In this document: positions 6,601 through 35,706 of the stretch, one piece after another
Layout: every line of letters starts with the position of its first letter
How positions within the stretch are numbered: the first letter of the stretch is position 1
Origin: Lama glama
Lineage: Eukaryota
Reading direction: 5' to 3'
Assembly (NCBI GenBank): GCA_028534125.1
Contig: CM052816.1
Coordinates: 13,952,001 to 14,016,000 of the forward strand
DNA length: 64,000 nt
Made by a program: the position numbers and the translations under genes
The notes under the pieces: model-generated
Told to the model about the DNA's origin: nothing
The model's input: only the letters and a program-made list of their open reading frames with translations
Databases searched by the model: none

Positions 6601-7069
6601 TTTAGATCTCCTTTCTCCAGAGGGTCTGAAACTCTAATCTTCATCTCAAGATAAAGGGGCTCAGTTATAATATGGTAAATATGACTAAAACACACTGCTG
6701 TAGGTTTAAAAAAGGAGACAGTGAGGATGTCAGATGTAGGAGAATATTGTCCACCACAATCTCATAGGCTGGCAGTCCACTAATCAGCTCACTATGGTCC
6801 AGAACAGGTGCTCCGTCCGACCAAGGCCTTAGAACAGATCAAACCTGGAGAAGCCAACACCTGTCAATCAAATGCCTAAGAGGCTGAAGTACATAAACCA
6901 CATGGGCGGGTGATGCTCTGTTTCCGTTCCGCTGTGTACATGGAATGATTTGGCAGTGTGTTCAGTGGGTCTCCAGGTCTGCTTTGCTCATATTCTCCAG
7001 GTGTGGTCTTGTAGCTTTTCCTTTGAGGAACTCCTTATCCTTCAGATAAATTCCTCTAGTACACATCAT

Positions 7070-7470
7070 TTACTTCTCATACCTCAGATGGTATGATTGC
7101 TGTCAGCATTTTTAAGATGAAACACCTGAGGCTTAGCAGGGTTAAGTGGCTTGTCCATGGTCACACAGCTGGGATTTAGACGCGAGCCTGGTAGACTCTT
7201 AATCACCTTGCCACTCTCCTTGGAAGGTTCAAGGGTTCCGTGTGTGTGACCTGGTTTGATTCTCACCGCTGGGCACTTTACAGAAGGTCAAGTACAGACT
7301 CAGAGAGCTCAGATCACATACCCAAGGCCACGCAGGCTGGGAGTGGCAGAGCTGGGGCTTGAACTCAAACCCATCTGAGGCAACGTCAGATTCCTACCCT
7401 CCTTACTGTGTGGCCTCTCTTGACTAGTTAGCTAAAGACAAGCAGGTTCCTCATCTGAAAAGCGGGTGTA
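7070..7470 (-). mobile_element. MIR fragments
   Basis: MIR core-like AGATGAAACACCTGAGGCTTAGCAGGGTTAAGTGGCTTGTCCATGGTCACACAGC, plus a second copy near 7275-7380. Confidence 0.7.
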
Positions 7471-8568
7471 ATTACAAGCAGGAAAAGTGGGAGCTTGCAG
7501 AAGCACATTAGCTCTTTCCAGATTCCCATTTTGAAGTCTTCAGTTTCTATCAAGAGAACTCCATATTTTTTAAAGTGGAGAGAATGATGGCATTGGTCAT
7601 TTGATGGGCGTTCTCTTCACTCCTTCAGAGTCACTTGACAATGACTTGTCATTTGAAGAGATATAAGAGCATTCATATGAGGTCTGCTCAATAGATTACA
7701 TTTTAAAATAATAATAATTGTTGTCATTGCTTTGCTGCAGTTGTCACTGCAATCAGTGTTGAAGGAGTTAATGTGCCTCCTTCAATGTTTAGTTTCTTAC
7801 CAGGCAGTGCCTTAGGCAGCGAGGAGAGAGGAGTGTGAAGTACTGTAAATTTTGAAAACATCCCCAAGCCTTTCAGTGTAAGTTTGCTCTCTATGCTATA
7901 ACCTGAGAAGAAACAGCTCAGGCACCATGACTGAAGAAAAGAGGCTGCCCATCAAAACAGTGCAAAGTAGACACGTTTTCATTTATTTTCTTTGGAGCCT
8001 TCCTGTTGGCAGCTGCACCGATTTGGTTAATGGAATATTCTTGACTCATTAAACAGGCTCATTGAGGGAAAGGAGCCAGGGGGCCTGGGGCAGGATGGGG
8101 AGCCACCCCAGCTCTCCTCTGACACGTTTTCCAAAAGTACAACATTTCTGACGCTTCCCAAAGATTAATATGTTAACAGGATGGGCATTAGGATCGTGAT
8201 GAAGGACACTGGAGAAAGCAGCATGAAAATAAGACTGAACTCTCAAAAGGAAGGACTTTAAAGGGCGGGGCCTCTTTTACGTGCTTGCCTGGTTCCTGGG
8301 GGTGGGATATGCACTTGGGCAGTGAGGGGTAACAGCACCAGGCCCACCTCCAGGCCGACCACTTTCACACAAGGACCTGGCCTTACCTCCGCACACGTTG
8401 CCTGACCCGAGACTTCATCCCAAGAGCAACCTGGCCCATCGTCCAGGACCCCCGAGTCCTCAGTCCCACTCTTAGTGCTACTCCTATTTATGAACAGCAG
8501 CAGGCTGCAGAACAGGAAGGAAGCTCAGAAGGCTGATTCCAGGAGCCCATTAAAAGGCCTGTAGCCAG

Positions 8569-8649
8569 AGGGTGGGGATAGCTCAGTGGTAGGGCGCATG
8601 CTTAGCATCCTCAGTTCCCATTACCTCCAAAAAAAAAAAAAAAGAAAGA
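8569..8649 (+). mobile_element. Vic-1-type tRNA-derived SINE with internal deletion
   Basis: A box ATAGCTCAGTGGTAG and poly(A) tail. TSD AAAAGGC(C/T)TGT(A/G)GCCAG at 8552-8568 and 8650-8666. Confidence 0.85.
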
Positions 8650-10097
8650 AAAAGGCTTGTGGCCAGGAATTGTGCCTGTCAACAGCTTGCTATATGATTT
8701 CATGCTCAGCCTCTCAATTTGTGTCCCTCACCTCTGAAATGAGAACTAGACGAGTCTTCATATTTTCCCAAAAAATAGCTGTAAGCAGCAGTTAAAATCT
8801 TTGATAGATGTGTAAATTTTAACAAAGCTGTACTAGCAGGAAGTTTTGGTTCCACGTAGACCAGATCCCATTGTAATGAGCGTAACTACAACAAAAAAAA
8901 CAATCTCAAAGCCCTCTTAGGACCGATTTATTTCTACAAATATTTAACACCATTTAACTCCAGGACAAGCCGAGAGCCTGATAATCCCTTGGAGTTTTTT
9001 TCGGGTTGAATTTATTAATACACTTAAGAGAAAAATTCTTTAGCTAAATATTGGTTAACTTTTTCTACACATTATTCCCATCAATGACTGACATTTGTAC
9101 AGCCCTCTGAGATGTTATTTTTTAGAGTGAATTTATGGTATGTAAATTACTTCTCAATAAAGCTGTTTAAAAAAATTTTTTTTTAATTTTAAGATCTCTG
9201 AAATTCACTGTGGGAAGGATTGCCCAACTCCAGGGATATCCCTTCACCCTGGATTCTGGGTTTGGTAGCGTAAAAGCTTCGCTGGGACCTATCAACCCCG
9301 CAGGCTACGATAGCCCTAAGGAGGACGACTGAGGCGCACACACACACACGTGCACACACGTTTGCACAAGGAACAGTTCTAAAACAGTTCTCACCAAGTC
9401 CCAGCTCCCTCCCCCAAGACTTCACACACATAGGCAATGAAATTAATTTTCCAACTTGAAGTAGAAAGAATCAAGTTAACTGAAAAACGATAAGGAAGGA
9501 GTTAGGTTTTCCAAAACTAATCAGCTTCCAGGAATAGGAATACAAACAACTCTGTTCAAGAGAAAACAATCTTTCCTCTTCCTTCCTACAAAGGAGTTTT
9601 GCCCCGCTGTATTACAAACAAACAGAAAACAAGTCATCCACGAGGAGGGAGGGAAAACCCTATAGACTTTGCCTTTTCCCTGTTTTGTTTATTCTACCCC
9701 AGAGAGAGGCACATGAAGTCACATAAACTCCTGTACTCTAGGGACTAAAACTTTTTTAAATTGCACTTTATGTTAAACAAGCAAATTTTCTGAAGCACTG
9801 CCATTTGTTGGAGAAGAATGTAAATCTGGACCTAATGGGCCTCAGATGTCCTTGAATGGAACATGACCATGAATGGAAAAGTACTAAGCCCCAGAAGGTA
9901 TTAGTGTGCAAGGCTGTGGGTCTGCTCAGCTGGAGAGCTTCTCTCCCCTTTAGAGATGAATTCTGTCTCTTGGACACCTAAAGCTTGAAGGGGTGGCTTT
10001 ATAGCCATCCAATGGGGCCAAGGAGAAGGGTTCAGGATGAGGGCTGACAGAGAGAGCTTCTGATGTCACTCAGTACTCAACACAAATGAGAAGCAAA

Positions 10098-10261
10098 GGC
10101 AGGAGGGTATAGCTCAGGGGTAGAGCCCATGTTTACCATGCATGAGGTCCTGGGTTCAATCCCCAGCACCTCCATTAAAACAAATAATAAATAAATTAAA
10201 AATAAATAAACCTAATTACTTTCCCTCTGCCAAAAAAAAAAAAAAAGAGAGAGAGAGAGAG
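10098..10261 (+). mobile_element. Vic-1-type SINE, full length
   Basis: GGAGGGTATAGCTCAG...GAGGTCCTGGGTTCAATCCCCAG carries A and B boxes, followed by an A/AG tail. TSD AAATGA(G/A)AAGCAA at 10084-10096 and 10262-10274. Confidence 0.9.
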
Positions 10262-10539
10262 AAATGAAAAGCAAGACTTAACAGTTACCAAGCTTACCAT
10301 AAATACATCAAAGCTTTCCCCTGGGACACCCCACCCTGCTCTCCATTGATACACAGAACCCTCTCACAAGTGAGTCTTCCAAAACGACCTCCTCCAAAGG
10401 CGGACACACCCTCAGAGGAGAAGGATGCAGTTCACCTCCTTGATCAGTGCCCTCCACTCTTGTCTGTGGGCTCAGAAGACTCTGGAACAGAAAAGGTGCA
10501 GGCTGGCGGAAGTAGCATGGATTTTTCTACTTTTACTCA

Positions 10540-10840
10540 AATGTCCGGGACTCACTCCGTATGACTGTCAAGGTTATGAAAAGCAAGGAAAGACTGAGCA
10601 ACTCCCAAACCGGAGGAATGTGGGGAGACAGGACAACTGAACGCAGTGTGGGTTGGATTCTGGAGCTTAGTTAATAGTAATGTTCCCATGTCTCTTAGTT
10701 TCTCGGTTGTGACCAGTGTACCACGGCAGTGTGAGAAGTTCAAATGGGGGAAACTGGCTGAAGGGTATATGAAAACTCTCTGTACCTCTCTGCAACTTTT
10801 CTTCAAACCTAAAATTATAACAAAATTAAAAGTTTAAAAA
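10540..10840 (+). mobile_element. Old L1 3' UTR (L1MC/MD-like)
   Basis: Contains GTCAAGGTTATGAAAAGCAAGGAAAGACTGAG and the terminus CTCTCTGTAC...GCAACTTTTC...AAAAGTTTAAAAA. Confidence 0.75.
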
Positions 10841-10899
10841 GTACAAACCCAAGAAAGTAAAATCCATGATGATGACACAGTTTAGGAGCCTTAGAGCAA

Positions 10900-11160
10900 C
10901 AGCAAAGCAGACGCCTAGCAAGTGTTCACGACATGCTGGGCACTGAGCCGTGCCCCTGCCCAACAGTACATCCTGCACCCGCTCAACAACCCTCTGATGT
11001 GAACCCTCACTGCATCCCCGCCACTGCCTAAACGAGGGAACTGAAGCTTAGAGAGCTTCGGTAACGGACCCAAGGGCACAAAACTGGTAGGTGGCAGAGG
11101 CAGAATTCAGACGGAGACACACTGACTCCAAGGACTGTTTCTTCCTTGCCATGCCAGAGC
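10900..11160 (-). mobile_element. MIR
   Basis: Contains GAGGGAACTGAAGCTTAGAGAG...CCCAAGGGCACA...GGTGGCAGAG. Confidence 0.7.
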
Positions 11161-11609
11161 ACCGACCGTCTCACGTTTCTTTCTGTCACATGATGGGGAA
11201 ACACCTCCTTGAACGGTAACTCAAAGAGAGAAAACAGCATCTAATAAGGGAGGAAAAATACTAGGACTCTCACTCAGAAAGAGACAGATTAAGAGATGGG
11301 CTCAGTTTCCTGCCCCCTTCCAAGTTACCACAATGTGTATTCATGTTTTAAATAACTGAAAAGGGTAGAGTTATAAAGAAGGATCGAAAATGGGAATCAA
11401 AACCCTCCCTGAACACCCAACCTCCAGCTCTAATGATTAGAATAAGAAGAGGTCTGTTCAAGGTCCGTAAAAAACAGACTTCATGCATAGAGAGAATACA
11501 GGTCTGTTCACCAAATCCTTGAATATGAGAACCCAGATAGCCCCTAGAACTTTGTAGGAGCAATTCTGTGAAAATAACAAAAGCCATATTTAGCACAAAG
11601 TGAACTCCT

Positions 11610-11613
<4 letters not shown>

Positions 11614-11644
<31 letters not shown>
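11614..11644. repeat. (CT)n microsatellite
   Basis: Direct reading of the sequence. Confidence 0.95.
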
Positions 11645-11646
<2 letters not shown>

Positions 11647-11819
11647 CATAGACAGTAGAAAAGGTAAACACTCCAAGGATGGTTTAAGATGAATTCTTGG
11701 CTGATGAGCTCTCACAGGCTATTGAGAGAAACAGCATCCCCATGTTTTAAAACTATCATGAGACAGATGAGCCATGCCTTCCCTGGGAGTCAGTGGAGCT
11801 CAGTGAAGAAATAATAGTT

Positions 11820-12740
11820 TCATATTAGTCAAGAATCTTTTCAGCTGCAAAGGGCAAAACCACTGTCAGGACATTTATTATTTACTTCACAAGAAATCTG
11901 GGAACAGAACATCTCAGGGGTCATTCAGCAACTCAACAATTTTGTGAAGGCTGCAGATCTTTCCATCCTTCTGCTTAACCGTACGCAGCATAGAGGTTTT
12001 TGTGTTCATATTTTTCTATTCATGAGGACAAGATAGCTGCCCCTGCTCCAGACATCACCATCCCAAAGCTTCTTTTCACAAGGGTCTATTGATCTTGGAA
12101 GAAAATCTATCCTAGTAGCACCCAGTAGATCTCTCCTTAGATCTCAATGGCCAAACTAGGTTTGGTCCCTTTTATGGGCTGAATGGTGTCTCTCCCTCGA
12201 CCCAGTCTCCAACTCATGTGTTGAAGCCCTAACACTGGTAACTCAGAATGGGATTGTATTCAAGACATAGCCTTTAAAGATGTGATTAAGTCAAAACAAG
12301 GCCATTAGGGAAGGCCCTGGTCCAATCTGACTGGTGCTTTTATAAGAAGAGGAAGTTTGGACACACCGAGGTGTATCAAGGATGCCTGCACTCAGAGGAG
12401 AGACCATGTGAGGACCCCGCAAGAAGGCAGCCATCTGCCAGCCAAGGGAGAGGCCTCGGGAGAAAGCGGTCCTGCCCACACCTTGATCCTGGACTTCCGG
12501 TCCTTGGGCTCTGAGAAATAAACTTCTGTTGTTTAAGCCACCCAGTCTGTGGAATTTTTTTATGGCAGCCCAAGTGAACTAACAAAGTCCCTGAGCTGTA
12601 ACAGAGTCTCTAAGAGGGAGGCTAGGGAAAGGAAATGGGACAGTGTGATTGCCCTGGGGGAGCATCTCCCCAAGACCAGCATTCACGGGGCTGCCGGGGG
12701 TCGCTGCTGGGTATCAGTTACCAACATTTACCACAATCCT
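11820..12740 (-). mobile_element. Old MLT1 (J/K/L-like) LTR, split by a nested MLT1A/B
   Basis: Motifs CAAGATAGCTGCCCCTGCTCCAGACATCAC and CTCAATGGCCAAACTAGG lie on the left. The sequence appears to resume after 12591. Confidence 0.6.
12170..12586 (+). mobile_element. Complete MLT1A/B-like solo LTR
   Basis: Runs from TTATGGGCTGAATGGTGTC to AATAAACTTCTGTTGTTTAAGCCACCCAGT...ACTAACAAA. 5-bp TSD GTCCC at 12165-12169 and 12587-12591. Confidence 0.9.
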
Positions 12741-13429
12741 TGAGTAGAAAGAGCTGGATCACACCCTCTGCTACTCAGAGCTTGTCTTGAGTTCAGTAAA
12801 ATGGGGAGAATAATCAATAGTTATTCTCCCTTTTACCCTCAGCTCTGAAATTCTAAATCTGAGGGGGCTCTCCTCAGGAAGAACCCTTGGATGACAAATG
12901 ACGGCCCTCGGGCATGCACACAGAGCATCCATTCCGACAATGCAGCCACCTGATGATACTTTCTGATGTTCTGTTTCAACTTTCACTTATTCAATACCTT
13001 ATTTCCTGAAAGAATCAATTAGGCCAATATGAATCTCCTTTTCTTATGTTTTCAAGGCCCCAGGAACCAAAGGCCCCTCGATGAACTGGAAACACATGAA
13101 TGCAGGCACACGCTGCAAAATCAAAGACCCAACACTTCCCTGTTCAAGTGTAAACTTCGAGGGCAAATACTATTCATAGTCATTTCTGTGATCCCAAAAC
13201 CCACTGCACAAAGTGGCCACGAGTGCTTCTGTACCAAATGAATGGAAAACACAGTCTCTGGAAATCCATTTTATGATTCATCTGTCTCACAAAGACCTGT
13301 CAAATACTAGCAATTAATTTGTGCTGCTTTCTGGAAGGTGGGTCTCAGTAACCTTACAATTAGTCAAAGACCAAAAATTATTTTCTTCTCTAAAGAATTT
13401 CACATATACTAAGAAGCTTCATTTTTTAA

Positions 13430-14555
13430 AGTGCTAAGAAAAGATGCATGAGTTAATGAACAGTAGGAAACAACTGGTTACATGAGTGAGAAATAAAGTC
13501 GACCTCTATCATGTGATTTATTCCTCCCCCCAAATTTTAGTAGGATTCAAGATTTAAGTATAAAAGCTAGAAAACACAGGTGATTAAATAGAAATCTTGG
13601 TTTGTGTTAGAGTTTCTAAGTATGTCAGAAGTTTAAAAAAAAGAATTGATAAATTTGCCATTAAGATCATTTTTCAAATATTATCTGGAAGGAATATTGT
13701 AAACAAAACAAAAAGGCAATTGATACAATGGGGAACCACTGATAATACTTATGCCAGAAAAAGGATTATTTTCCTTTTCCTTTATATATATTGAGATCCT
13801 CAAATCATAAGATACAGATAAATAATACAAAAGGAAAATGATCAAATTTACAAGAGCAGGAAGTTCATAGAAATAAATGGCCATTATTTGGGAGTAAGGT
13901 TGGAAGCTCACTCTTAAGGAAATATGAATTATAATAATAAAAAAATACATTTATTTTAAGATTGACAATGATAAAAAGCTTGTAGATGTATTTGTGATAG
14001 TGTATGCAGTCAGGCATTTTCATACACTAATTCTGGAGTTTAAAACTGGCATGACCTTTCTGAAGGACAATTTGACAACATCTGTCAAAAATTTAACTTA
14101 CCAGACCCTTTAATCCAAAAAAATACACCTCTAAGTGAAAGTTACTCTAAAAATACAGGATATAGGTTTACCATACTTATTAGAGCACTGTTTGCAATAA
14201 AGCAAAAACAATCTGAATATTCATTAACAGGCTGGTTAGATACATTATTACATTCACACAATGGAACACTATGAAGCAATTTTTTTATGAGTAAATCTAG
14301 ATTTACTGAAATGGAAAACATCCAACACGCGCTAAGTGAAAATCAGCAAGTTGTAGAACAAGATGTCCAATTTGCTCCTATTTGTGTTAAAAATATATAT
14401 GCATTTGTATGCTTGTATGTCCCTAGAACATTTCTGGAAGGATATACAAAACGCCGTTGACTGTGGTTACGTCTGGAAACGATTCTGCTTGAAATTACTA
14501 CCGTGATTGTGTATTGCTTAGGCAATAAAAAGAGATACAGTTAAAATACAAAACG
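13430..14555 (+). mobile_element. Ancient L1 (L1ME-like) 3' portion
   Basis: Diverged ORF2-end and 3' UTR landmarks: ACAAAAAGGCAATTGATACAATGGG, TAAAACTGGCATGACCTTTCTG and CACACAATGGAACACTATG. Confidence 0.7.
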
Positions 14556-14899
14556 CCCCCCTGTTGCTTCCTCGGAAATTCCTCAAATGGGAAAAATTAA
14601 GCTGAAAATGTTAGGACTTATCACTTCCTCCTAAGTGCGGGCTTTTGGAGAGAGAGGGGAATGCCCAGAAGGAAAGAAATCTGTTGGATGGATGTTTCAG
14701 AGCTCAGTCTGAAATAGAATATTCTGAAACTCCCTGAGTGTGGGTGAGCAAGGGGCTGAAGGGCTGAGGACCGGAGGCAGGGCTCCTGCCCGGCAGCACT
14801 GATCACCTCCAAGCCGCTTTCATCGCCACACTGGACAGAAAAAGCAGCAGGGCTCAGTTCCTTAATCTCTTCCTGACCTTAGAATTAAAGTCAGCTCAG

Positions 14900-15420
14900 G
14901 AGGGAAGGAGAAGGGGTGGGTGAAGGAAGGCCCCCTGGGAAAGACATCAAACAGAATCGAAGCATCTCTGACCTCCAGGTCACCAGCCACTTAGAACAAA
15001 CGTGGCCTCTCCTGCAGCCCACCCTGGGCGCCAGCGCTGGAAGCCAATTCCGAATGATTTAGGAAATCGGCCCAGCCCCGGGGCGGGCAGGAAAGGAGCG
15101 ATTAAGGGCGAGAGGGAGAAGTGAGGCTTCCTCGGGAATGAGCACATTTGGAAGCGAGGCAGGAAGGGGCAGGAAGCTGCTCTCATAAAACAATCTGACA
15201 ATTACGTGTCAGTCTAGGAGAAGGGCTCTGGAAATTATGGGGCTGCCACGCCGCACTCCCTGGCCCTCCCCCAGCGATTTCCTCATGGCTGCAATGAGCA
15301 GCAAGAGGAAATTATATTTGGGGCCAGGTGTTGGTGGCTCTACGTTCGGGTTCAACTTGGGACTGAGAATTTTACACTCGCATGCAGAGGGAAGCAATTC
15401 CCTGCTGCTGCTGTAAAGCA
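14900..15420. promoter_or_regulatory. Candidate enhancer or promoter (GC/CpG-enriched unique sequence)
   Basis: CCAAT at 15044, GC box at 15080-15087, several GGAA (ETS) cores, and retained CpGs. Confidence 0.4.
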
Positions 15421-16269
15421 CGGGGGCTGCACTGATCCTAGCCGGCCTGGCACCACGCTGGCATTGCCATGACCATACCTGGCATTTACCAACTGGTCAC
15501 TGGAGCCAGGCGCATCACCTGCATGAACTCACAACAACCCTACTACAGACACTGAGACCCAGAGCAGCTCCGTGACCTGCTGCAGATAACTAGTTAGGGG
15601 AGGCAGAGTAAGAATTTGAACCCAGGCATTCTGTCCCCAGAGCCCCACACTCAAAATTCAATTGGTAACACAGCTTATGGATATTTTTCAGAGAGCAACC
15701 AGAACCATTATTTTATATATGTTATCTGGAGGAAAGAGGTTCCTGAGCAGACTCCTACCTAAACACAGGCATTGCCTTCTTGTCCATTATCCATCCATCC
15801 ATCTCCTTCCTTCCCTGTATTTATGAAGTACTGATGGTGTGACCAGCAGAGTTAGGTACTGTGAAATTACAAGACCCACTCTTGCTTCTAAAGACAATGA
15901 GAGAATACATTTTACAGACTTAAGAGTCCAAACATATTTGCAGTCTTTTCCTGAGCCTTGCTATGATATTTCTGGGTTTGTTTGGAGCAGACACATTCTT
16001 GCCAACCCTCAGGACCAGGAACTTTTCTCAGCACACACATTTGACAGAGTCCTGGCAGAGTCTGGCCTTCCTCCTGTCCACCGGCCCCCTTCAGAGGGGA
16101 CCCTTTGGGAGGCAGTGGGACATCTGTTCAGGGCCAAGGTGGGGTTGGGGGCAGTTGGGGACAGGAAGAATCTGAGTTTTCTCTCATGGGCTGAGAAAGC
16201 GCGGCTCTTAGAAGATCCCGTACCTCAGTTGAGAGGAGAGCAGGGGAGTAGCAGTCAAGTGTCCCAACT

Positions 16270-16880
16270 CCCCCAGTCCCTAGCTGTGTGACCCTGGGCA
16301 AGTTGCTTGGCTTTTCTGAGCCTGTCTTGTGAAGTGAGACTGTCATGAGGATTAAATGAAACAACATGCCAGTTTTCAGCAAGAGCGCTTCCCGGAACAT
16401 GGGAGGCATTCATAAATCTTGGCCATGACCCTGATGTTCTGTGCTGGGTGTGTCATTTAAGTAAGCCAATCCTGCTCTCACAGCCTCTTCTATTAGCAAA
16501 GCACTCCCAGGACATCAGAAATGCTTTACTTCCTCCCAGCTCAACTGCATGATACCCAAAAGGCATCTTTATGAAATGAACGCTACCTGGTAACATGATT
16601 ATTTCCTTAGTCATACATTTATTAATTACCTGCAAATGCTAAGGCAGGCAATATGCATTGAAGATAAAAACAAAACTCTGACAGCTAGACTTCTGGGTTC
16701 AGATCCCATCCCTGCTACTTGGGCACATTACTGAACATCTGTGAACCTTAAATCCCTCACATGTGAAAACAGGGGTAACAAAAGATAGTCCTTACCCATC
16801 AGGTAATGGTGAGCATCAGAGAAAAGAATGTAACCTTATTTTCTGCCTGGCTTCAGGTAAGGACCCACTAAGTGACAGGT
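16270..16880 (+). mobile_element. Two MIR fragments (16270-16420 and 16670-16880)
   Basis: First contains CTAGCTGTGTGACCCTGGGCAAGTT...GAGGATTAAATGAAA. Second contains CTGGGTTCAGATCCC...TTGGGCACATTAC. Confidence 0.7.
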
Positions 16881-17579
16881 TATTCTTTTTTTTTTTTAAT
16901 TGTTGTACTAAAAATTTTGCACAAGCATAATTTTGCACAGACATAATCCTTGACTTCTGAGATAAAATGAACAATGCCCATGGTCTCTAGCATGCAGACG
17001 AAGTTAAATAAAGCAGAACTTACAGGCCAATTAGAATAAATGTCTGGGTGAAATAAAACTAGAAAACTGGGTAGAATTGAGAAGGCGCCATTAAAATCTC
17101 TTAGTTTTCTGTGAATTTCAGTGAGAAACTAAAGTCTGGGGAAGAAAAGATACAAATGTAGGAAGCGGTGGTAGGTGGGAGAGGGACCCTAAAGGCTTAA
17201 AATTTGCAGTCATATGTTAACTGGTTCAGTAAAAGAAACTTCCAGTACATCTGTTTCCAGAGACTTCTTTGGGGTGAGGACTGACCCCCATATCCTTTTG
17301 GCAATTCCTTTCCCAGCATCTGGCATTTCAGGAAGAGACTGCTAGGTAACAAACATCACCTCACCACTCTAAGATTTCTGCCATAAACAGAGTCCCTCCG
17401 GCTCTTTTGTTGTCTTGCTATTGCTTAAAATAGTATTTCATGTGCATTTACTTCTTCATTCTTCCCGTTCCTTACTGATACTCATTACAAGCTTTCACTT
17501 CTTGTCATTCACACCCCTGCCCCGGTGTCCTGCACATACTAAGTACACAAACAATTTCTTGATCCCTGACCAATCTTAC

Positions 17580-19235
17580 CTGAAATCTCCAATGTCCAAT
17601 GTTGACTGATCTGCAAACAGTCCAGAGAATCATTCGAATAAAAAGCAGAAGGGGCCAGGAGGGGGCAGTGATGGGGCAGAGCTTGCCAGAGAAAGGGAAA
17701 TGCCAGTTATTATTCTGGATGACTTCAGACAAACAGAAAACATTTGGATTTAGCCCAGGAGAGGGTGCTACCTACTTCCAAGAAAGCCTGGCCACGCACG
17801 CTGGGCAGGGCCTGTCTCCTCAAATGAGGCTGGGGTTTGGGCTTCCGAGCTGCCCTTTTACCAGTGCGGGGGATGGGGGCCAGGGCTGCGGGGGGAATGC
17901 TCCAACAGCCTGGGCCCTCCTCTGATACAAGGAACTCTTCAGCTGGACCACAGGCAGGAGTCTAGGGAGCATGAACATACCAGCAGAACAGATGCAAAGC
18001 TGCTTCTTTTGCTCCAAGCATTTACCCAAGCAGCTTGCTGGGCAGTGGAGATAACATAAAAAACAAACAAACAAACAAACAAAAAAAACCCATCACCACC
18101 CTACCACCAATGCATACTCTAAGGTGGTTTTTTAAAACATCCTGAGAAAAGAGGGAAAGTGTTAAATGTAGGGGTAGGTAGTTAGAGATCACAGGATGCT
18201 GAATAAAACCTAAATGTGCACCTTCTCCCAGCCCTTATATAAGGTATGTTTCTATTTCCAATGTTATTCAAACAAAGTCCCTTTTGTCTTTGTGGTGGAA
18301 TAACTTCTCTGGAGCCTGGAATCTAGAAGACTGGCCTCTATACTCCTAGTTGCACCCCTGATCCTTTCTCCCCAAAGCTCTTCGGCTAGCTCCTTCATTT
18401 CTTGAGCGCTCACTATACCCATACCTTAAACAGGAATCATTGCTAGCATACTTGCAGCAAGATGGAAATTCTGCTCACTATACCCTTTCAACGATACACA
18501 TTATTATACTGAGGCAGATCACTCACCTGCTTCTCATTTGTCTTTTGACAAGTCAGATGTCCTGCTTTCTCTGAACAGAAACCCCGATAAAAGTTGTAAG
18601 TAAATAGGAAATAGAGTGGATGTTAAATTGTAGCTCCTGATGGGAACCAAGTCTAAAAAGCAGTCTTGATACTGTCAGTGGGAGTATAAATGCAGAGGGC
18701 ACTGCTTACATATGTAACAGACCACTTCACCTAGCAATTTCAAGCCTATGAATTACTCCTACAGATATACTGGTCCATACATACAAAGATCGACAAAACA
18801 AGTGAATCTGTTCGGCAACGTTTATAATGGCAAAACTCTGGAACAAATGCATTAACGGGACTGGTCAAATTAATTACAGTACATCTACTGTACAATGAGA
18901 CACTGTGTATGTACAAAGTACATTACAGTGTGTGTAATACGCTCCCGTTTGTGTTATGTTTATGTACATTTATATATTTATACTTTTTTTAAAAGGGCTC
19001 TGTGCACATAGAAAAAATTCTAGAAGGACACCCCCAAAGCTTCTGACACAACGACTTTCAGGTAGTGGAACTCGGGGTATGGGACATACCTTCTTGCACA
19101 TAGTTTTGTAGCATTTGACTTTTTTACATGTATTACTTCTGTAATAATAAAAACCAGCCTTCAAGTGTGGTGGCCGCCCCTCTTACCTGCCTTTAGAAAC
19201 TCTGTTGGCTTCATTCATCTCTATCTAGAATCCAA
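17580..19235 (-). other. Three candidate short exons (19187-19235, 18527-18570, 17580-17610) of an unidentified minus-strand transcript
   Basis: Each has a pyrimidine tract with CAG acceptor and a CAG|GTRAG donor (gtaaga, gtgagt, gtaaga). No expression data. Confidence 0.5.
18660..19160 (+). mobile_element. Ancient L1 3' end (L1ME-like)
   Basis: Contains GTGGGAGTATAAAT, CACCTAGCAATTTCA and the terminal TTTGACTTTTTTACATGTATTAC. Confidence 0.6.
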
Positions 19236-19537
19236 CTGACAAAAACACAAAAGTGGAGGACAACGGTGCATGCTGGACAAGTTCCTGCTGCTGCGGGGAT
19301 GTGAGCTCCAATCATGTTAGATCCGATACCATTATCTTCCCTTTTCGGTCCTCAGGTAATAAGCGAAGCTTACTGTGCTAGGCTTTTATGAAGAATGATC
19401 TTACTGATATAGAACAATATCTTGGAGACACTAAAGACTGGTGACTTGGCAAAAACCAGTGCGCTGTTCTCCTCAGCTAAGAATGACACTGTGGGGCACA
19501 GCCCTGAGCCCTCTAAGTAGAGAAAAGTTCAGTTGGT

Positions 19538-19995
19538 TGTATTTGTTGGGATTAGGCTCAGCTGTGAGGACCAGAAAATCTCAAATAACAGCACCTTAAA
19601 TATGATAAAAGTTCTCTTCTTCTCTCATATACAAGGACTCAAAGATGGTCAGGGTGTGGGAGGCTGCACCTTCTCTCCTGCTGCTTTATCATGCATCACT
19701 TCAACCTGGTCCAACATGGCAGCTTCCACGTCTCGGGAAGCAGGATGGAGGAAGACGTGAAGAAGGCGCAAAGTATATACACATAATGCCTCTTAAGTGG
19801 AGTTTCTAGAAGCTGCCATCAGACATTTTCACTTACTCAGATTGGCCAGAACTCAGTCTCATGGCCGATCCAGCTGCAAGGGAAGCTGAGAAACGCAGTC
19901 TTAATGCCATCCTAAAATTGAGGATTCTATGTTACTACCATAGAAGAAGAGAAGAGTGGATACTGAGAGATGATTTGAGGCTTCTGAACACTGAT
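19538..19995 (-). mobile_element. Old MLT1 LTR (H/J-like)
   Basis: Contains AAATAACAGCACCTTAAA, TCCAACATGGCAGC and ATTGGCCAGAACTCAGTCTCATGGCC...GCTGCAAGGGAAGCTGAGAAA. Confidence 0.7.
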
Positions 19996-21229
19996 CTACC
20001 CTACTCTCTTTGCCCCCTAATCTATTTTTCAAAGATAAATATCATCTCAGCATATTGCATAGATAAGGAAAAATATCATGCTTTGCCATCTATCCACCTT
20101 TATAAGCTTAGAAAAAAGTTTTGCTAACATTTCAACATTGAAAGGATGGCAAAATGTCCTAGAGTTTCACTCCCTTGTGTTTCTCCCAGCTCTGAATCCA
20201 GCTCTAAAATCCTGAACATGGATAGGATATACTCGCTATTGGGGACAGGAACCATGTCATGCCCACAATATTTCCACCAATAAACGTCAACAAAATACAG
20301 TGGAACTGGTCTGTGATGTAATTCAGAGACTATTTCCTGTAAGACAATATGCCCTGGAAGAGCATGCTATTTATACTATGGGAAAAGCCCATGGGCTTCA
20401 GATTTAGGTTCAAGGAAAAAGGAATCTGTCAGCTGATTAAACAGGATCCCTGGGGACAAGGATAGTAGTGTTAACAGTCATAAAGGAACTGGGACGTCAG
20501 AGACTCCCAAGGTTGGGAAGGGCTAATTCTACCTTCAGAGGAGACAGCGGCAGCTCCTCGGGCATTCCTGCTGGACACCCATCTTCACAGCCACCACAGA
20601 CTGCAAAGAAGGACCAGATGCCTGCCTGTGTCTGCCATACCTGTCACTCACTGCAGGTTCCCAGACCCAGGACCACTCTTCACTAGGACTTAAAAGGAGG
20701 GTGGTTTTGTGTGTCTTAGACTGCAGGCCACCAGTTAGCAGTAAAAAGCCAAATGTTTAAACCCAAATTAACTTCCACGTTGTGGTCTTCTGTCTTGTTA
20801 AAAATAAGTCACTTGATGGTTCTTTGATCAATAAATAGCATGAGGGTATAGAGACAAAGGAAAAGGATATTAACATGAAGGCAAAAGACTAAACCAGGCC
20901 CCTGAGGATGACTCAGAGAGGTGGGAACTCAGAGGCTCCCTTTCCTGGTATCTCAGGAGGACCACTGCTCCAGACTTGACAGTTTGTGACCACTTTGTTG
21001 ACACTGGCCCCACATTTGGCCCAATGCTCTTAGGCCCTTGGCCAGTCGGGACTGAGTGGTCATCACGCCAGCGAGGTGACAAGCTAGGACCCCACCTACC
21101 ACCTACCAGGCCTGGGCCACACAGGTTCTACCAACAACTGAACATAAGACACGGCCCCAGATCAACTCCTGAGTCCCTCCCAAACCTGCTTCTCCCCTCT
21201 CACTAGACAACCAGGGTGTTCTCAGTCTG

Positions 21230-21895
21230 AAAGCTCCCTCTCTCACACCCCATCTCCAACCCAGCCGCGAATCCTACTGCCTGCCTTCGAAGCCCGTCGG
21301 GAACCCGATCACTTCTCACCGCTTCCACTGGTCCAGGAAAACGGCCCTCTCACCCGAGTTACTACGAAGCCTCCTGACTAGTTCACCGCTCTCCTCTCAC
21401 CAACCCACCCACTCAGTCTCTTCACCTGGGAAAACCTAAGCCAGGTCAGGGCACCCCTTGGTTCTAGACCCTCTGGGGGCTCCCCAGTTCATGTGGACTA
21501 CAAGTCCACGTCCATAGCAGCGTCCAAGCCCTCCTCTCCCACCTCACCTCCTGCACCCCTCCCCCGGCTCTGCTCCTGCCCCCTCCCCCGTCCACAAGCC
21601 AAGCAAACGCCCAGCAGTGTCCACAGGGATCCTCCCCCAGCTGCCTTCAAAGTCTGCTCCTTCACTTCCTGCAAGTGGCTCTCCAGTGCCTGCCCCCAAA
21701 CAAAAACTTTCCCCAGCTACCCCTCTGGGCCTCCTTTACTTCTCTTCCTAATGTGTATCCCCAGCTGACAGAATGTGAGTTTATTGTTTACTGTCCATCT
21801 CTCCCCACTGGGCTGTGAGTTCCACGGATACAGGATATTGTCTCCCTAGAACAGTGCGTGGTGCAGAGCAGACAAATCCTTGATAAACAAATGGT
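21230..21895 (+). mobile_element. L2 3' portion
   Basis: L2 3' end CTGTCCATCTCTCCCCACTGGGCTGTGAGTTCCAC...CCTAGAACAGTGCGTGG. Confidence 0.7.
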
Positions 21896-22436
21896 GCTGC
21901 ACAGTGTCCAGCTCACGTGTGGCCTGAGGTCAAACAAGCAGCCACAAGGGCAAAGAAAGCCCAGTCATCCACACAAAAATGCGCAATGTCTCTTTTCATA
22001 ACTAACCTTCTTGTTCTTTTCATAATTAAGTGAAGGAGAAGGAAGGTATCTGCTTGTTGGACGAATGAGGGGAGGAACCATTTACTGAGCACCTACTACA
22101 TCTCAGGCACTGTTCTGGTTCTGGACGTACGTTTTGTGGCACTTCCACTGCAGGGGGAATATGGGGGGAGAGGTTCGATTTGAAAAAGCTGAAAAGAATA
22201 CCATAAATAAGCAAATAAAATTGTTTCAAATAATTATTAATAATATATATTTTCAAGAAATCTTTCTAAAAATTTCTAATAAAAATATACCTGTTTTATA
22301 CATGGGTACTTACTTATGAGTCTCTTTCTTCCACTTTTTCCTCCTCTGAAGTCCTGCACTTGAAATAAAAAATACATATATTTCATATATGTTAAATTAA
22401 TTCACGCTGTCCACCTCAGAGCAGCTACTTTATGAC

Positions 22437-22557
22437 TTTGGGGGGTGGTGATTAGGTTAATTTAATTTTTTAAATTTTTTTAACAGAGGTACTGGGGATT
22501 GACCCCGACTTCGTGCATGCTAAGCATGCACTCTACCACTGAGCTATACCCTCTCCC
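22437..22557 (-). mobile_element. Vic-1-type SINE
   Basis: GAGGTACTGGGGATTGA...GCATGCTAAGCATGCACTCTACCACTGAGCTATACCC is the reverse complement of the SINE head. Confidence 0.9.
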
Positions 22558-23399
22558 TCCATGATGAGCCATACCATGTCAAAGACGGTATCTCTTGTAT
22601 GTGGATTTAACAACTGATACTGTTCTGTGCCATGAGCCTAGAAGGTACCCACTGAAAATCAGTCTGGTGACGGCTCACAGATCTTCAGAAGTGTATTCTG
22701 CAATTCTTTCTGACCTACCATCATGGCTCTACCAGTACATTGCCGAGAAGCTGCACACTTTTATTTGACTAGAGCTGGTGAAAATTCCATATGGAGTCCT
22801 CAGTTCACAAAGCTGAATGAAAACACAGAACCTCTTAAAATAAAAATAGATCTGTTTGGGAATCACAAGGGAAATGTTACTTATTCTCTGAGCCTTCAGC
22901 TTCTGCTCTCCCTGGTGGTGGGAACCTACGCTGTCATTCCAATTTCCTATAAACTTGGCAGCACTCTGTGTCCATTTGGAATTGTAATAGCCCGGATTTC
23001 AGTTCGGGGAGGAAGGAAGGAGTCATTGCATTCCACCAAAGAGTCCTCCAGCTGAATCCCAAGAAGCCAGAGCTTAAATGTCAATGTTCTCCCAAAGGGA
23101 AGAGATGGCTCCACCTAATGAGTTTACCTGGTTAGCGCTCCATAACCAGTTCTGGGCTCGCTTTGCTGGCCTTTCTTTCGTAATGCTGCTTGTTGTAGAA
23201 AATTCGGATTTTTGGATTAGGTGTTTTGGGGGGTTTTTTGTTTGGTTTTGTTTGTTTGTTTTGCAGTTATACCCAGATTTTTCACACCAAATACCCTAAG
23301 TATTTCAGACCAACAGTTCCAGGATGTGTGTGTTCTTACTGTCCATCCCCACTGCTACATGCTTCCTGATTTAGGAAATGGGAACTGCAAAAAAAAGGC

Positions 23400-28244: not shown

Positions 28245-30350
28245 GGTAAGAATTACCTGGGGTAGGAGAGCATGCTGCATTTAAAGTGCAGACTGCAGAT
28301 TGCATCCCCAAAAATAAAATACTTAGGAATAAATCTGATGAAGGAAGTGAAAGGCTTATATGAAGAGAACTACAAAACACTGACTAAGGAAATAAAAGAT
28401 GACTTAAAGAAATGGAAAGATATTCCATTTTCTTGGATTGGAAGAATTAATATTGTTAAAATGGCCAAACTACCCAAAGCAATCTACAGATTTAATGTGA
28501 TCCCTATTAAATTATCCAAGACATTTTTCACAGAATTAGAACAAATAATCCTAAAATTTATATGGAATCACAAAAGACCCAGAATCACCAAAGCATTACT
28601 GAAGAAAAAGATTGAAGCTGGATTAATAACTGTCCCAGACTTCAGACAATACTACAGAGCTAAAGTAATCAAAACAGTATGGTATTGGTACAAAAACAGA
28701 CATATGGATCAATGGAACAGAATAGAGAGTCCAGAAATAAACCCACAAACTTTTGGTCAATTAATCCTTGACAAAAGAGGCAAGAACGTACTATGGATTA
28801 AAGATGGTCTCTTCAGCAAATGGTGTTGGGAAAACTGGACAGCTGCATGTAAATCAATGAAGTTAGAATACTCCATCACACCGTACATGAAAATAAACTC
28901 AAAATGGCTTAAAGACTTAAACATAAGATAAGACACTATAAATCTCTTAGAAGAAAACATAGGCAAGACATTATCTGACATAAATCTTAGCAATGTTCTC
29001 CTAGGGCAGTCTACCCAGGCAACAGAAATAAAAGCAACAATAAATAAATGGGACCTAATTAAACTTAAGCTTTTCCGCAGCAAAGGAAACCATAAGCAAA
29101 ACAAAACAACAACCTACGGAATGGGAGAAATATTTGCAAAAGATAAGACTGACGAGGGTTTAATCTCCAGAATATATAAACAGCTCATACAACTTAATAA
29201 GAAAAAACCAAACAACTCAATCCAAAAATGGGCAGAAGACCTAAGCAAGCACTTCTTCAGTGAAGACATACAAACGGCCAATAGGCACATGAAAAAATGC
29301 TCAGTATCACTAATTATCAGAGAAATGCAAATCAAAACTATAATGAGGTATCATCTCACACCAGTCAGAATGGCCATCATTCAAAAGTCCACGAACTATA
29401 AATGCTGGCGAGGCTGTGGAGAAAAGGGAACCCTCCTGCACTGCTGGTGGGAATGTAGTTTGGTGCAGCCATTATGGAAAGCAGTATGAGAGTCCTCAAA
29501 ACACTAAAAATAGACTTACCATACGATTCAGCAATCCCACTCCTGAGCATATATCCAGAGGGAACTTTAATTCAAAAAGACACCTGCACCCCAATGTTCA
29601 CAGCAGCACTATTTACAATAGCCAAGACATGGAAACAGCCTAAATGTCCAACAACAGATGACTGGATAAAGAAGCTGTGGTATATTTATACAATGGGATA
29701 CTACTCAGTCATAAAAATAATAAAACAATGCCATTTGCAGCAACATGGATGGACCTGAAGAATGTCATTCTAAGTGAAGCCAGAAAGAAAAAAGAAAAAT
29801 ACCATATGATATCACTTATATGTGGAATCTAAAAAAAAAAAAGACAAGCTTATTTACAAAACAGAAACAGACTCACAGACATAGCAAACAAACTTATGGT
29901 TACCAGGGGTTGGGGTGGGGGGGATTGGGTTGGGAAGGGATAAATTGGGAGTTCAAGATTTGCAGATACTAATATACATAAAACAGATAAACAAGTTTAT
30001 ACTGTATAGCACAGGGAACTATATTCAATATCTTGTAGTAACCTTTGGTAAAAAAGAATATAAAAACGAATATATATATATGTATATATATATATATGTG
30101 TATATATATATATATATATATTCCTATATACCTGAAGTATTGTGCTGTACACCAGAAATTGACACACTGTAAACTGACTATACTTCAATAAAAATATATT
30201 TCAAAAAATAATAAATAAAGTGCAGGCTGCTGGGCCCTGCTCCTAGAGATACTGGTTTAGGGGCCTGGTGTGGGGCCCAGGAATCTGAATTTTTAACATG
30301 CTTCCATGTGATTCTGATACAGATGGTTCACAGATCACACTTAGAAAAAC
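28245..30350. mobile_element. MER5-like hAT MITE split by the L1
   Basis: AGAATTACCTGGG...TTAAAGTGCAG on the left continues on the right as CTGGGCCC...GGGGCCCAGGAATCTGAATTTTTAACA...GTGATTCTGAT. Confidence 0.8.
28297..30216 (+). mobile_element. Young 5'-truncated L1 (~1.9 kb; ORF2 C-terminal part, now frameshifted, plus 3' UTR)
   Basis: The ORF at 28272-28931 (KIKYLGINL...[18 protein letters not shown]...) is L1 ORF2. TSD AAAGTGCAG(A/G)CTGC at 28283-28296 and 30217-30230. An (AT)n run lies at 30070-30130. Confidence 0.95.
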
Positions 30351-31882: not shown

Positions 31883-32609
31883 CAAGGTTTCCAGAACTTT
31901 ATAGCAACTTTGAACATGAGGCAGCAGCATAGTACTGCGTGGGGACCTCGGGAAACTGAGTTTATGTGATAGTTTTCCACCAGGACCCAGTTCCCAGCAC
32001 ATCAGGGTGAAGGACTAAGATCACAAGCATTTACAAATCTTCAGTTTTAACGAGATGTAAGAGCATTCTAGGGACTGAAACCCGCTGACCTCAGAAAACA
32101 TCCAGAGGAACACTTTTAACGATTCTGACAAATCTGGTCTGGTCAACCTCATTTGCTCGGGAAATTCTCTTTGGCTTTGGCACATCCTAAACTCAGACCT
32201 GAGGCTGGCCAGTGCTGGATGCGACCCAGTACCAGCGTCGGGTCTTCAACCCCCAAAGCCTCTTTGCCTCGAGGCAGAACGATGCAGTGGCTCGCTCGGT
32301 TCAAGTCCTCGTTCCACTACTTACCAGCTGAGGGCTGCAGGCCCGGAGCTTCCTCTCTGGGCCTCAGTCTCCTCAACTGCAAGATCAGGATGGCGGTACA
32401 CACAGCGGACAACAGTAGACACCCCGCAGGAGAGCTGTGTGGCCTAAGTGAAAAGCTCGTGAATGCAGCTTAGCAGAAAGTCTGGCCCAGGGTGCATGTT
32501 AGCAGCTATTATTTCGATGTCCAGATTTACAGAGGTCCTCAGATTTAAGACACATATTTATATGGTGCGGTCTAGCTGACTTCCGAGAGCAGTGTAATAA
32601 ATCTATATA

Positions 32610-33772: not shown

Positions 33773-35706
33773 CCTCCCAACAAAGTCCAGGACCAGACAG
33801 CTTCACTTGTGAATTCTACCAAATATTTAAAGAAGGATTAATACCAGTCCTGTCAAACTCTTCCACAAAATACAAGAGAAAGGAACACTTCCAAACTCAT
33901 TTTACGAGGCCAGCATTACCTTGATACCAAAACCAGACAAGGATGCCACCAGAAAAGAAAATTACGGGCCAATATTCTTGATGAATATAGGCACAAAAAT
34001 CCTCCACAAAATATTAGCAAACTGAATTCAAAGTACATTAAAAGGATCACACACCATGATCAAGTGGGATTTACCCCAGGGATGCAGGATGGTTCAGCAC
34101 CTGGATCAATCTATGTGACACACCAAGTTAACACAATGAGGGATAGAAACCATACAGTCATTTCAATAGATGCAGAAAAAGCATTTGACCAAATTCAACA
34201 TCCATTTATGATTTTTTAAAAACCTCTCAACAAACTTGGTATAGAGGCAATGTACCTCAACATAATAAAGGCCATATATGACAACCCCACAGCTAACATC
34301 ATACTTAATGGTGAAAAGCTAAAAGCTTTTATTCTAAGTTCAGGAATAGGACGAGGATACCCACTCTCGCCACCTTTACTGAACATAGTATTAGAACTCC
34401 TAACCAGAGGAATTAGGCAAGAAAAAGAAACAAAAGATATCCAAGTCAGAGTGAAGGAAATAAAACTCACTATTAGCAGATGACATGATACTATCTACAC
34501 TTTAAAGCCTCAAGACTCTACCAAAAAAACTATTAGAATAAACAAATCCAGTAAAGTTACAGGATACAAAGTCAGTATTCAAAAATATGTTGTGTTTCTA
34601 TATACTAGTAACAAACTATCAGGAAAGAAATCAAGGAAACAACCTCATTTCCATTTGCATCAAAAATAATATCTATGAATAAGTTTAACCAAGGAGGTGA
34701 AAGACTTGTACTGAAAACTAAGCTTTCAGACAGTGACAAAAGAAATTGAAGAAGACACAAATAACGGAAAGATATTATGTGCTCCTGGGTTGAAAGAATC
34801 AATTTTGTTAAAATTCCCATACTACCCAAAGCAATCTACAGATCCAATACAATCCCTATCAAAATTCCAATGGTATTTTTCACAGAAACAGAACAATCTT
34901 AAAATTTGTGTGGACACAAAAGACCCCAAATAGTCAAAGCGTTCTTGAGAAAGCAGAACAAAGCTAGAGGTATCACGCTCCCTGACTTCAAACTATATCA
35001 CAAAGCTAAGTAACCAAAAGAGTATGGTACTGGCAGAATAATACACAGAACAGTGGAAAAGAATAGACAGCCCAACAATAAACACATGGATATACCGCCA
35101 ATTAATTTATGACAAAGGAGCCAAGAATACACAAGAAGGAAAGGACAATCTCTTTAATAAATGGCACTGGGTAAATTGGACAGCTATGTGCAGAAGAATG
35201 AAACTGGATCACTATCTTATACCAGAAATAAAAATTAACTCAAAATTTAAGACCTGAGATGGTAAAACTCTTAAAAGAAGATAGGTAGTAAGCTCCTTGA
35301 CAATAGTCTTGGTGATGATGTATGTTGGATTTGACACTAAAAGCAAAAGCAACAAAAAACAAACAAAACAAAAATAAATAAAGTCATTTGCATCAAATTA
35401 AAAAGCTTCCACACAACAAAGGAAACCATTGACAAAATTAAAAGGCAACCTACTGAATGGGAGAAAATATTTGCAAATCATGTATCTAGTAAGGGATTAA
35501 TATTGAAAATATATAAAGAACCCATACAACTCAATAGCAAAAAACCAAAACAATCCAATTTTTAAAAGGGCAGAGGATCTAAATACACATTTCTCTAAAG
35601 AACACATACAGATAGTCAAAAGGTACATGAAAAGGTATGAACATCACTAATCGTGAGGACAAGTAAATCAAAACCACAATGAGGTATCACCTCACACATT
35701 TCAGAA
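33773..35706 (+). mobile_element. L1 ORF2 fragment (RT to C-terminus), degenerate, no 3' UTR
   Basis: Encodes [33 protein letters not shown] and [14 protein letters not shown], with many frameshifts. Confidence 0.92.

Follow-up and report, generated by a model that had tools for sequence, protein, structure and literature searches.

Three short exon-like segments between FGF1 and a Sprouty gene in Lama glama read, on balance, as chance pseudo-exons

We lean towards interpreting three short exon-like segments (A, B, and C; Table 1) on the minus strand of a 64-kb stretch of Lama glama DNA (64,000 nt, hereafter the window) as chance pseudo-exons, which are probably not used in splicing. Acceptor and donor motifs resembling the consensus would have arisen in pairs by chance in single-copy, non-coding DNA, and the resulting pseudo-exons would encode nothing and require no hidden functional gene. 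Occasional use of the strong donors is conceivable if the minus strand is transcribed. The segments carry well-formed splice motifs, form a cluster that is rare in its surroundings, are single-copy, and lie between FGF1 and a Sprouty-domain gene; no coding or known-RNA signal was found for them in the frame analyses and the Pfam and Rfam searches reported here. Pseudo-exons as we know them from the splicing literature are likewise short and have good acceptor and donor motifs without coding content, repeats, or a promoter, although a typical single pseudo-exon is commoner than three perfect CAG/GTRAG donors on one strand within 1.7 kb. Real exons are far fewer than the intronic pseudo-exons that have good sites, and exons of 31-49 nt are poorly recognized without special enhancers.

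Splice signals of the exon-like segments

The three core segments had been described as short minus-strand units, each with a pyrimidine-rich AG acceptor and a CAG/GTRAG donor, and direct reading of the window sequence confirmed both their coordinates and these signals. [quoted passage not shown] The scores in Table 1 come from rough weight matrices of our own rather than from a published scorer. The donors of A, B, and C are all near-perfect fits to the U1-pairing consensus. The purine fraction is 0.63 in A, 0.70 in B, and 0.55 in C, compared to a strand mean of 0.49. Purine richness, as seen in A and B, is a tendency of enhancer-rich exons. Both the threefold near-perfect U1-consensus donors and the purine-rich composition of A and B speak against pseudo-exons. 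A comparison of the three core units with one another for signs of paralogy yielded short chance repeats only.

Several weaker candidates on the same strand also had the sequences previously ascribed to them. On the same rough matrices, their splice sites are poorer than those of the core, owing to the donors of the candidates beginning at 22353, 20600, and 10481 and to the acceptors of those beginning at 8483 and 7842 (Table 1). A tRNA-like SINE head (22484-22553, minus strand) precedes the candidate at 22314..22353, which follows it ~130 nt downstream.

Table 1. Exon-like features on the minus strand of the window (a slash marks the boundary of the segment; window coordinates)
Feature	Position	Strand	Length (nt)	Acceptor	Acceptor score (bits)	Donor	Donor score (bits)	Remarks
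Segment A	19187..19235	-	49	ttttgtgtttttgtcag/	7.7	GGCAG/gtaaga	11.0	
Segment B	18527..18570	-	44	tttctgttcag/	4.8	AGCAG/gtgagt	12.8	
Segment C	17580..17610	-	31	ctgtttgcag/	6.2	TTCAG/gtaaga	11.0	
Weak candidate	22314..22353	-	40		6.9	TAA/gtaagt	6.7	Purine-rich
Weak candidate	20533..20600	-	68		9.1	AAG/gtagaa	4.3	Good acceptor, poor donor
Weak candidate	10436..10481	-	46		10.3	GAG/gtgaac	6.8	Good acceptor, moderate donor
Weak candidate	8387..8483	-	97	aaatag/	3.0	GAG/gtaagg	10.8	Poor acceptor, strong donor
Weak candidate	7801..7842	-	42		3.7	CTG/gtaaga	9.0	Poor acceptor
Proposed last acceptor and following sequence	6790..6845	-		ctccag/				Sequence reading only; AG ends one base off the coordinate

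Rarity of the motif cluster

The cluster had been singled out because CAGGTRAG sites seemed to number only a handful, and a count bears this out. The window contains seven, three on the plus strand (16854, 23537, and 36576) and four on the minus strand (58960, 19189, 18529, and 17582), and the core segments account for three of these four. When the search was extended by 100 kb in both directions from the window, to 264 kb in total, 27 sites were found, and the core was the one same-strand triple within 1.7 kb. Under a Poisson model, same-strand triples defined by the donor only are expected 1.65e-2 times per 64-kb window, corresponding to ~606 per 2.35-Gb genome. Strict triples, in which each donor is accompanied by an acceptor that scores 4.5 bits or more and is located 25-60 nt upstream, are expected 4.0e-4 times per 64-kb window, or ~15 times per genome. 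The acceptors add little to the pattern, because 26-29% of random positions also have an acceptor of that quality 25-60 nt upstream.

The cluster is thus uncommon, yet the pattern was defined post hoc, after it had been seen, and therefore roughly 15 to 600 chance cases have to be expected per genome. Since ~15 strict and ~606 donor-only triples would occur in 2.35 Gb, chance suffices to account for a pattern picked out after the fact. The low frequency of the strict pattern per window (4e-4) and its standing as the sole same-strand triple in 264 kb do speak against pseudo-exons.

Exon-like units were also unevenly distributed between the strands of the 264-kb region, with 21 of 47 strong donors belonging to such units on the minus strand vs. 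4 of 38 on the plus strand. This minus-strand excess was rejected as not robust, being confined to two neighbouring settings (p = 0.018 and p = 0.05) of the 20 combinations of threshold and length. Some of these units appear to resemble the MIR repeat consensus.

Copy number, known RNA families, and promoters

The core was also correctly described as unique sequence: its 1.8 kb are single-copy in the 2.35-Gb assembly, where a GTTT microsatellite accounts for every other match. Searches of the llama genome with 22280-22400 and 7700-8600 likewise found these regions to be single-copy, and a repeat origin of all three regions was therefore discarded. An additional repeat search over 15.5 kb scored one old repeat family and is narrower than a full repeat map.

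Short non-coding exons separated by short introns are typical of snoRNA host genes such as GAS5 and the SNHG family, and the core, with its putative introns of under 1 kb, resembles such hosts. A small-exon gene that hosts snoRNAs would, however, carry them in its introns, and none was found in those of the core. Rfam searches detected only tRNA-like SINE heads, both when gathering scores were applied to the entire window and in 16500-23000 at E values up to 1, with no snoRNA in either search and no other family in the latter. We thus rejected this reading, which we consider extremely improbable.

The 64-kb window contains no CpG island. On the side upstream of the segments, the nearest islands occur near +84.5 kb and +132 kb, and CpG-poor promoters are not recognizable from sequence alone. 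AT skew was considered as a sign of minus-strand transcription and dismissed. On the plus strand, A outnumbers T between about -88 kb and +152 kb, a stretch that includes FGF1, and the skew is uninformative because it has the same sign over this gene, which is itself transcribed on the plus strand. Some RNA sequencing runs contain 5-15% of the words sampled from 12500-22499, small shares that do not count as evidence of transcription.

Coding potential

Joining segments A to C to two of the weaker candidates had been reported to give an uninterrupted frame of 76 codons from an ATG at 19214. We recovered this frame, with first 35 residues identical to those given before and with a stop at codon 77, within the candidate at 7801..7842. 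The ATG is located in segment A and is preceded by stops. A micropeptide of ~76 residues encoded by the chain would be consistent with this open frame. The frame is, however, only one join picked among 32 possible ones, two of the acceptors it requires are poor (3.0 and 3.7 bits), and among 2000 random exon sets with the same lengths, 9.7% contain an ATG frame of that size or longer, placing it within chance expectation. Furthermore, Pfam searches with the contiguous frames at 8261-8524 (minus strand, over 8483-8387) and 20538-20756 (minus strand, over 20600-20533) gave no match. The suggestion of a micropeptide gene thus finds no support, and we regard it as highly unlikely.

Each core segment would supply at most 16 residues, and the three joined together comprise 124 nt, which is not a multiple of three, with stops in all three frames. 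This distinguishes them from the micro-exon arrays of protein-coding genes, e.g. neuronal micro-exons, in which the reading frame is preserved, although the size of 31-49 nt and the strong splice sites are shared features.

The preliminary description had also considered a decaying small-exon gene. Such a unitary pseudogene, the remnant of a once-coding gene, would be compatible with the several splice-like units and with the stops in most joins. Of the 228 frames in the window that reach 70 aa, however, 225 were scanned, and the single Pfam match beyond chance was a sub-threshold piece of an L1 reverse transcriptase (RVT_1, E value 7e-6, 26.3 bits, below the cut-off of 29.6 bits), and three further matches had E values of ~0.009. 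In addition, we know of no protein-coding gene in the human interval between SPRY4 and FGF1. A decayed gene is thus also unsupported and appears very improbable. With neither an open frame beyond chance nor, apart from the sub-threshold RVT_1 piece, similarity to a protein family in the scanned contiguous frames of the window, a protein-coding gene of any kind is highly unlikely at this locus.

Genomic context and the antisense lncRNA alternative

The window is placed between FGF1 and a gene with a Sprouty domain, both of which are on the plus strand; the minus-strand segments are therefore antisense to both. FGF1 exons 2 and 3 are located at contig coordinates C1:13922684-13922809 and 13927197-13927367 (about -29.3 kb and -24.7 kb relative to the window), and the FGF1 stop codon is ~42-44 kb from the core segments. 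On the other side, the Sprouty domain is encoded at C1:14153146-14153484 (window +201 kb), with the gene ~182 kb beyond the segments. We take this gene to be SPRY4 by synteny, a name that rests on the human gene order. In the flanks, 287 frames reach 100 aa; Pfam was run on the longest 150 of them and may have overlooked further genes nearby.

This position and strand fit the main alternative to chance pseudo-exons, which we consider a real but tentative possibility. Segments A, B, and C may be small non-coding, probably cassette, exons of a spliced minus-strand lncRNA, in which strong donors would define exons in a transcribed but unconstrained region. One candidate is a counterpart of long human SPRY4-AS1 isoforms that begin near the SPRY4 promoter and run toward FGF1, and another would be a separate transcript, convergent with FGF1. 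The rare motif cluster, the purine-rich composition of A and B, and the single-copy DNA would also agree with lncRNA exons. On the other hand, it would be unusual for three exons in a row to measure 31-49 nt, and the window lacks a promoter-like CpG island. The exon structure of lncRNAs often differs between mammals.

Human data offer a partial parallel. According to the human literature, the interval between FGF1 and SPRY4 contains the lncRNA SPRY4-AS1 (LOC101926941), which, like the segments, is antisense to both genes, a likeness of place and strand only. Human variants are tabulated as 'FGF1, SPRY4-AS1' and 'SPRY4-AS1, FGF1', suggesting, if the comma-joined labels are interpreted in this way, that SPRY4-AS1 overlaps FGF1. 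This reading of the labels would speak against pseudo-exons. Published data also put chr5:142508341 between SPRY4 and FGF1, a position deemed intergenic in the RefSeq-style annotation of one paper, and we infer that only longer SPRY4-AS1 annotations would extend to the counterpart of the spot studied here. The labels and this position are in line with lncRNA exons, although the extent of human SPRY4-AS1 is in this case read off comma-joined labels in tables, not taken from coordinates, which are not given in PMC8521147 either.

As expected of a SPRY4-AS1 orthologue, the segments lie between FGF1 and the Sprouty gene on the strand opposite to both. The genomic context makes an unannotated lncRNA, also among the readings offered in the preliminary description, plausible without showing it. 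A more far-reaching version, in which an unannotated small-exon gene convergent with FGF1 would splice its three micro-exons constitutively and yield either a micropeptide of ~76 residues or a conserved antisense lncRNA tuning the expression of FGF1 or SPRY4, seems very unlikely to us.

Implications

If the three segments are chance pseudo-exons, as we favour, they are ordinary, and hunting for perfect donor motifs would turn up a few such clusters in each mammalian genome. Should the segments be real exons instead, the most likely outcome would be extra isoforms of an lncRNA locus known in human, beside two growth-signalling genes. This would be a modest gain for the annotation of Lama glama and would not add a new type of gene.

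Splice motifs of the core segments

Direct reading of the sequence confirmed segments A, B and C, the three exon-like minus-strand segments that form the core of the preliminary description, with their coordinates and splice motifs. With rough weight matrices of splice-site frequencies, A, B and C reach donor scores of 11.0, 12.8 and 11.0 bits and acceptor scores of 7.7, 4.8 and 6.2 bits, and each of the weaker candidates on this strand (22353-22314, 20600-20533, 10481-10436, 8483-8387 and 7842-7801) has at least one poor splice site. Two further short minus-strand units fall within the range of the proposed chain and are absent from the preliminary description: 8732-8778 (strong donor GAG/gtgagg) and ~14102-14146 (strong donor CTG/gtaagt). 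Both have an acceptor at 25-60 nt upstream, and their support does not exceed that of these candidates. The core, 1.8 kb long, occurs only once in the 2.35-Gb assembly and thus lies in unique sequence, as had been claimed, and mutual comparison showed that A, B and C are not copies of each other. The scarcity of CAGGTRAG also held: the 64-kb window contains seven sites (three plus, four minus), and the core supplies three of the four on the minus strand. The core motifs are genuine and form an uncommon cluster.

Features of the window and its flanks (window coordinates unless C1, the chromosome carrying the window, is given; L012, L017 and L021, flank pieces; G000, whole assembly; slash, exon boundary)
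Feature	Position	Strand	Details
Segment A	19235-19187 (49 nt)	minus	acceptor ttttgtgtttttgtcag/, donor CAG/gtaaga
Segment B	18570-18527 (44 nt)	minus	acceptor tttctgttcag/, donor CAG/gtgagt
Segment C	17610-17580 (31 nt)	minus	acceptor ctgtttgcag/, donor CAG/gtaaga
FGF1 coding exon 2	C1:13922684-13922809 (L012:684-809; window ~-29.3 kb)	plus	own-genome FGF-family match
FGF1 coding exon 3	C1:13927197-13927367 (L012:5197-5367; window ~-24.7 kb)	plus	57/57 identical to solved FGF1 chain
Sprouty domain, full	G000:C1:14153146-14153484 (window ~+201 kb)	plus	124.7 bits, in 311-aa open frame
CpG-island-like stretch	about 84.4-85.1 kb (L017:401-1100)		FGF1-SPRY4 interval
CpG-island-like stretch	about 131.8-132.6 kb (L021:7800-8600)		FGF1-SPRY4 interval
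L1 ORF2-like open frame	28266-29489	plus	
L1 ORF2-like open frame	33842-34480	plus	sub-threshold RVT_1, E 7e-6
tRNA-like	10103-10174	plus	Rfam and ARAGORN
tRNA-like	22484-22553	minus	Rfam, no ARAGORN call
tRNA-like	40091-40164	minus	Rfam and ARAGORN
Old interspersed repeat, ~400 bp	about 12164-12582		own-genome search

Chance expectation and repeat content

Across 264 kb (the window and 100 kb on each side), CAGGTRAG occurs 27 times (14 plus, 13 minus), and the core is the only same-strand triple within 1.7 kb; the plus strand has two pairs at this spacing, with ~2 expected from the site rate. At a rate computed without the core, 1.65e-2 donor-only triples are expected per 64-kb window, or 4.0e-4 if every donor must also be paired with an acceptor scoring 4.5 bits or more 25-60 nt upstream, corresponding to ~606 and ~15 genome-wide. 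The acceptors carry little weight, because 26%-29% of random positions have one of at least 4.5 bits upstream. The cluster is unusual, yet in a search for exactly this motif chance yields one somewhere in any mammalian genome, and we lean towards regarding the core as chance pseudo-exons.

At one threshold, 21 of 47 strong donors on the minus strand belonged to exon-like units vs. 4 of 38 on the plus strand, but this enrichment failed over 20 threshold and length settings, with the minimum p (0.018) at the setting inspected first. Several of these units look MIR-derived when compared with the MIR consensus. Strong donor-like sites also lie in apparent MIR repeats (consensus ...ACAGATGAGGAAACTGAGGC...), at 32325 (minus) and at flank sites such as -38790 and -32986; such repeats give rise to donor motifs in a single orientation.

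The window otherwise has the character of mammalian DNA, with L1 reverse transcriptase fragments, tRNA-like SINE heads and low CpG content. The three tRNA-like matches most probably represent tRNA-derived SINE heads rather than tRNA genes. The own-genome search (7289 first-look candidates, 39 scored) mainly retrieved the old repeat, which nearly all of the 41 matches listed cover, mostly at 72%-77% identity. RNA runs contain 5%-15% of the sampled words of 12500-22499, shares that may stem from young SINE words and are given no evidential weight here.

Coding potential and RNA families

The proposed join of A (from the ATG at 19214), B, C, 8483-8387 and 7842 onward is indeed open for 76 codons, with a stop at codon 77. 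It is one join picked from 32 and depends on a pair of candidates with low-scoring acceptors (3.0 and 3.7 bits on the rough matrices). In 9.7% of 2000 trials, exon sets drawn at random from this strand and matched in length gave an ATG frame of equal or greater length, and A, B and C joined alone have stops in all three frames. The Pfam scan, which covered 225 of the 228 window frames with 70 aa or more (three were omitted), returned one above-chance match, to RVT_1 (E 7e-6, 26.3 bits, below the cut-off of 29.6), and three at chance level (E about 0.009); frames over the 97-nt (8483-8387) and 68-nt (20600-20533) candidates matched no protein family. The suggested micropeptide or decayed coding gene thus finds no coding signal, and the two readings are, even jointly, very improbable.

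In Rfam searches of the whole window, and around the core at E up to 1, only tRNA-like SINE heads were found, which rules out a snoRNA host gene. Overall, the window scans revealed no coding signal, known RNA family or visible promoter.

Position between FGF1 and SPRY4

A left-flank frame matches the FGF family, with FGF1 as the best natural match among solved structures. Given the complete identity of exon 3 to an FGF1 chain, the FGF1 coding region ends at ~-24.6 kb, 42-44 kb from the core, and the window starts ~25 kb past the stop codon. The Sprouty-domain gene on the other side is presumably SPRY4, going by human gene order and synteny with 5q31.3. The core sits in the interval between FGF1 and SPRY4 and, with both flanking matches on the plus strand, is antisense to each of them. 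The two CpG-island-like stretches in this interval (GC 0.57-0.61, CpG observed/expected 0.63-0.80), in which no coding frame is recognisable by eye, may be promoters or enhancers.

In human, the lncRNA SPRY4-AS1 occupies this interval according to three sources (PMC10778978, PMC11220351, 10.1101/2024.12.31.630881). A table in the first labels variants 'FGF1, SPRY4-AS1' and 'SPRY4-AS1, FGF1', where a comma appears to denote overlapping genes and a hyphen an intergenic site; a GWAS table in the second sets chr5:142508341 between SPRY4-AS1 and FGF1, and the preprint assigns both to one locus. SPRY4-AS1 coordinates are not given in PMC8521147.

The core might instead represent real small non-coding exons of a SPRY4-AS1-type antisense lncRNA, a reading we consider less likely: its location and orientation agree with this, its donors are strong, and A and B have high purine fractions (0.63 and 0.70 vs. 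a strand mean of 0.49), but three successive exons of 31-49 nt would be atypical. Chance pseudo-exons remain our preferred reading; at best, the segments would be added exons of an lncRNA locus already known in human.
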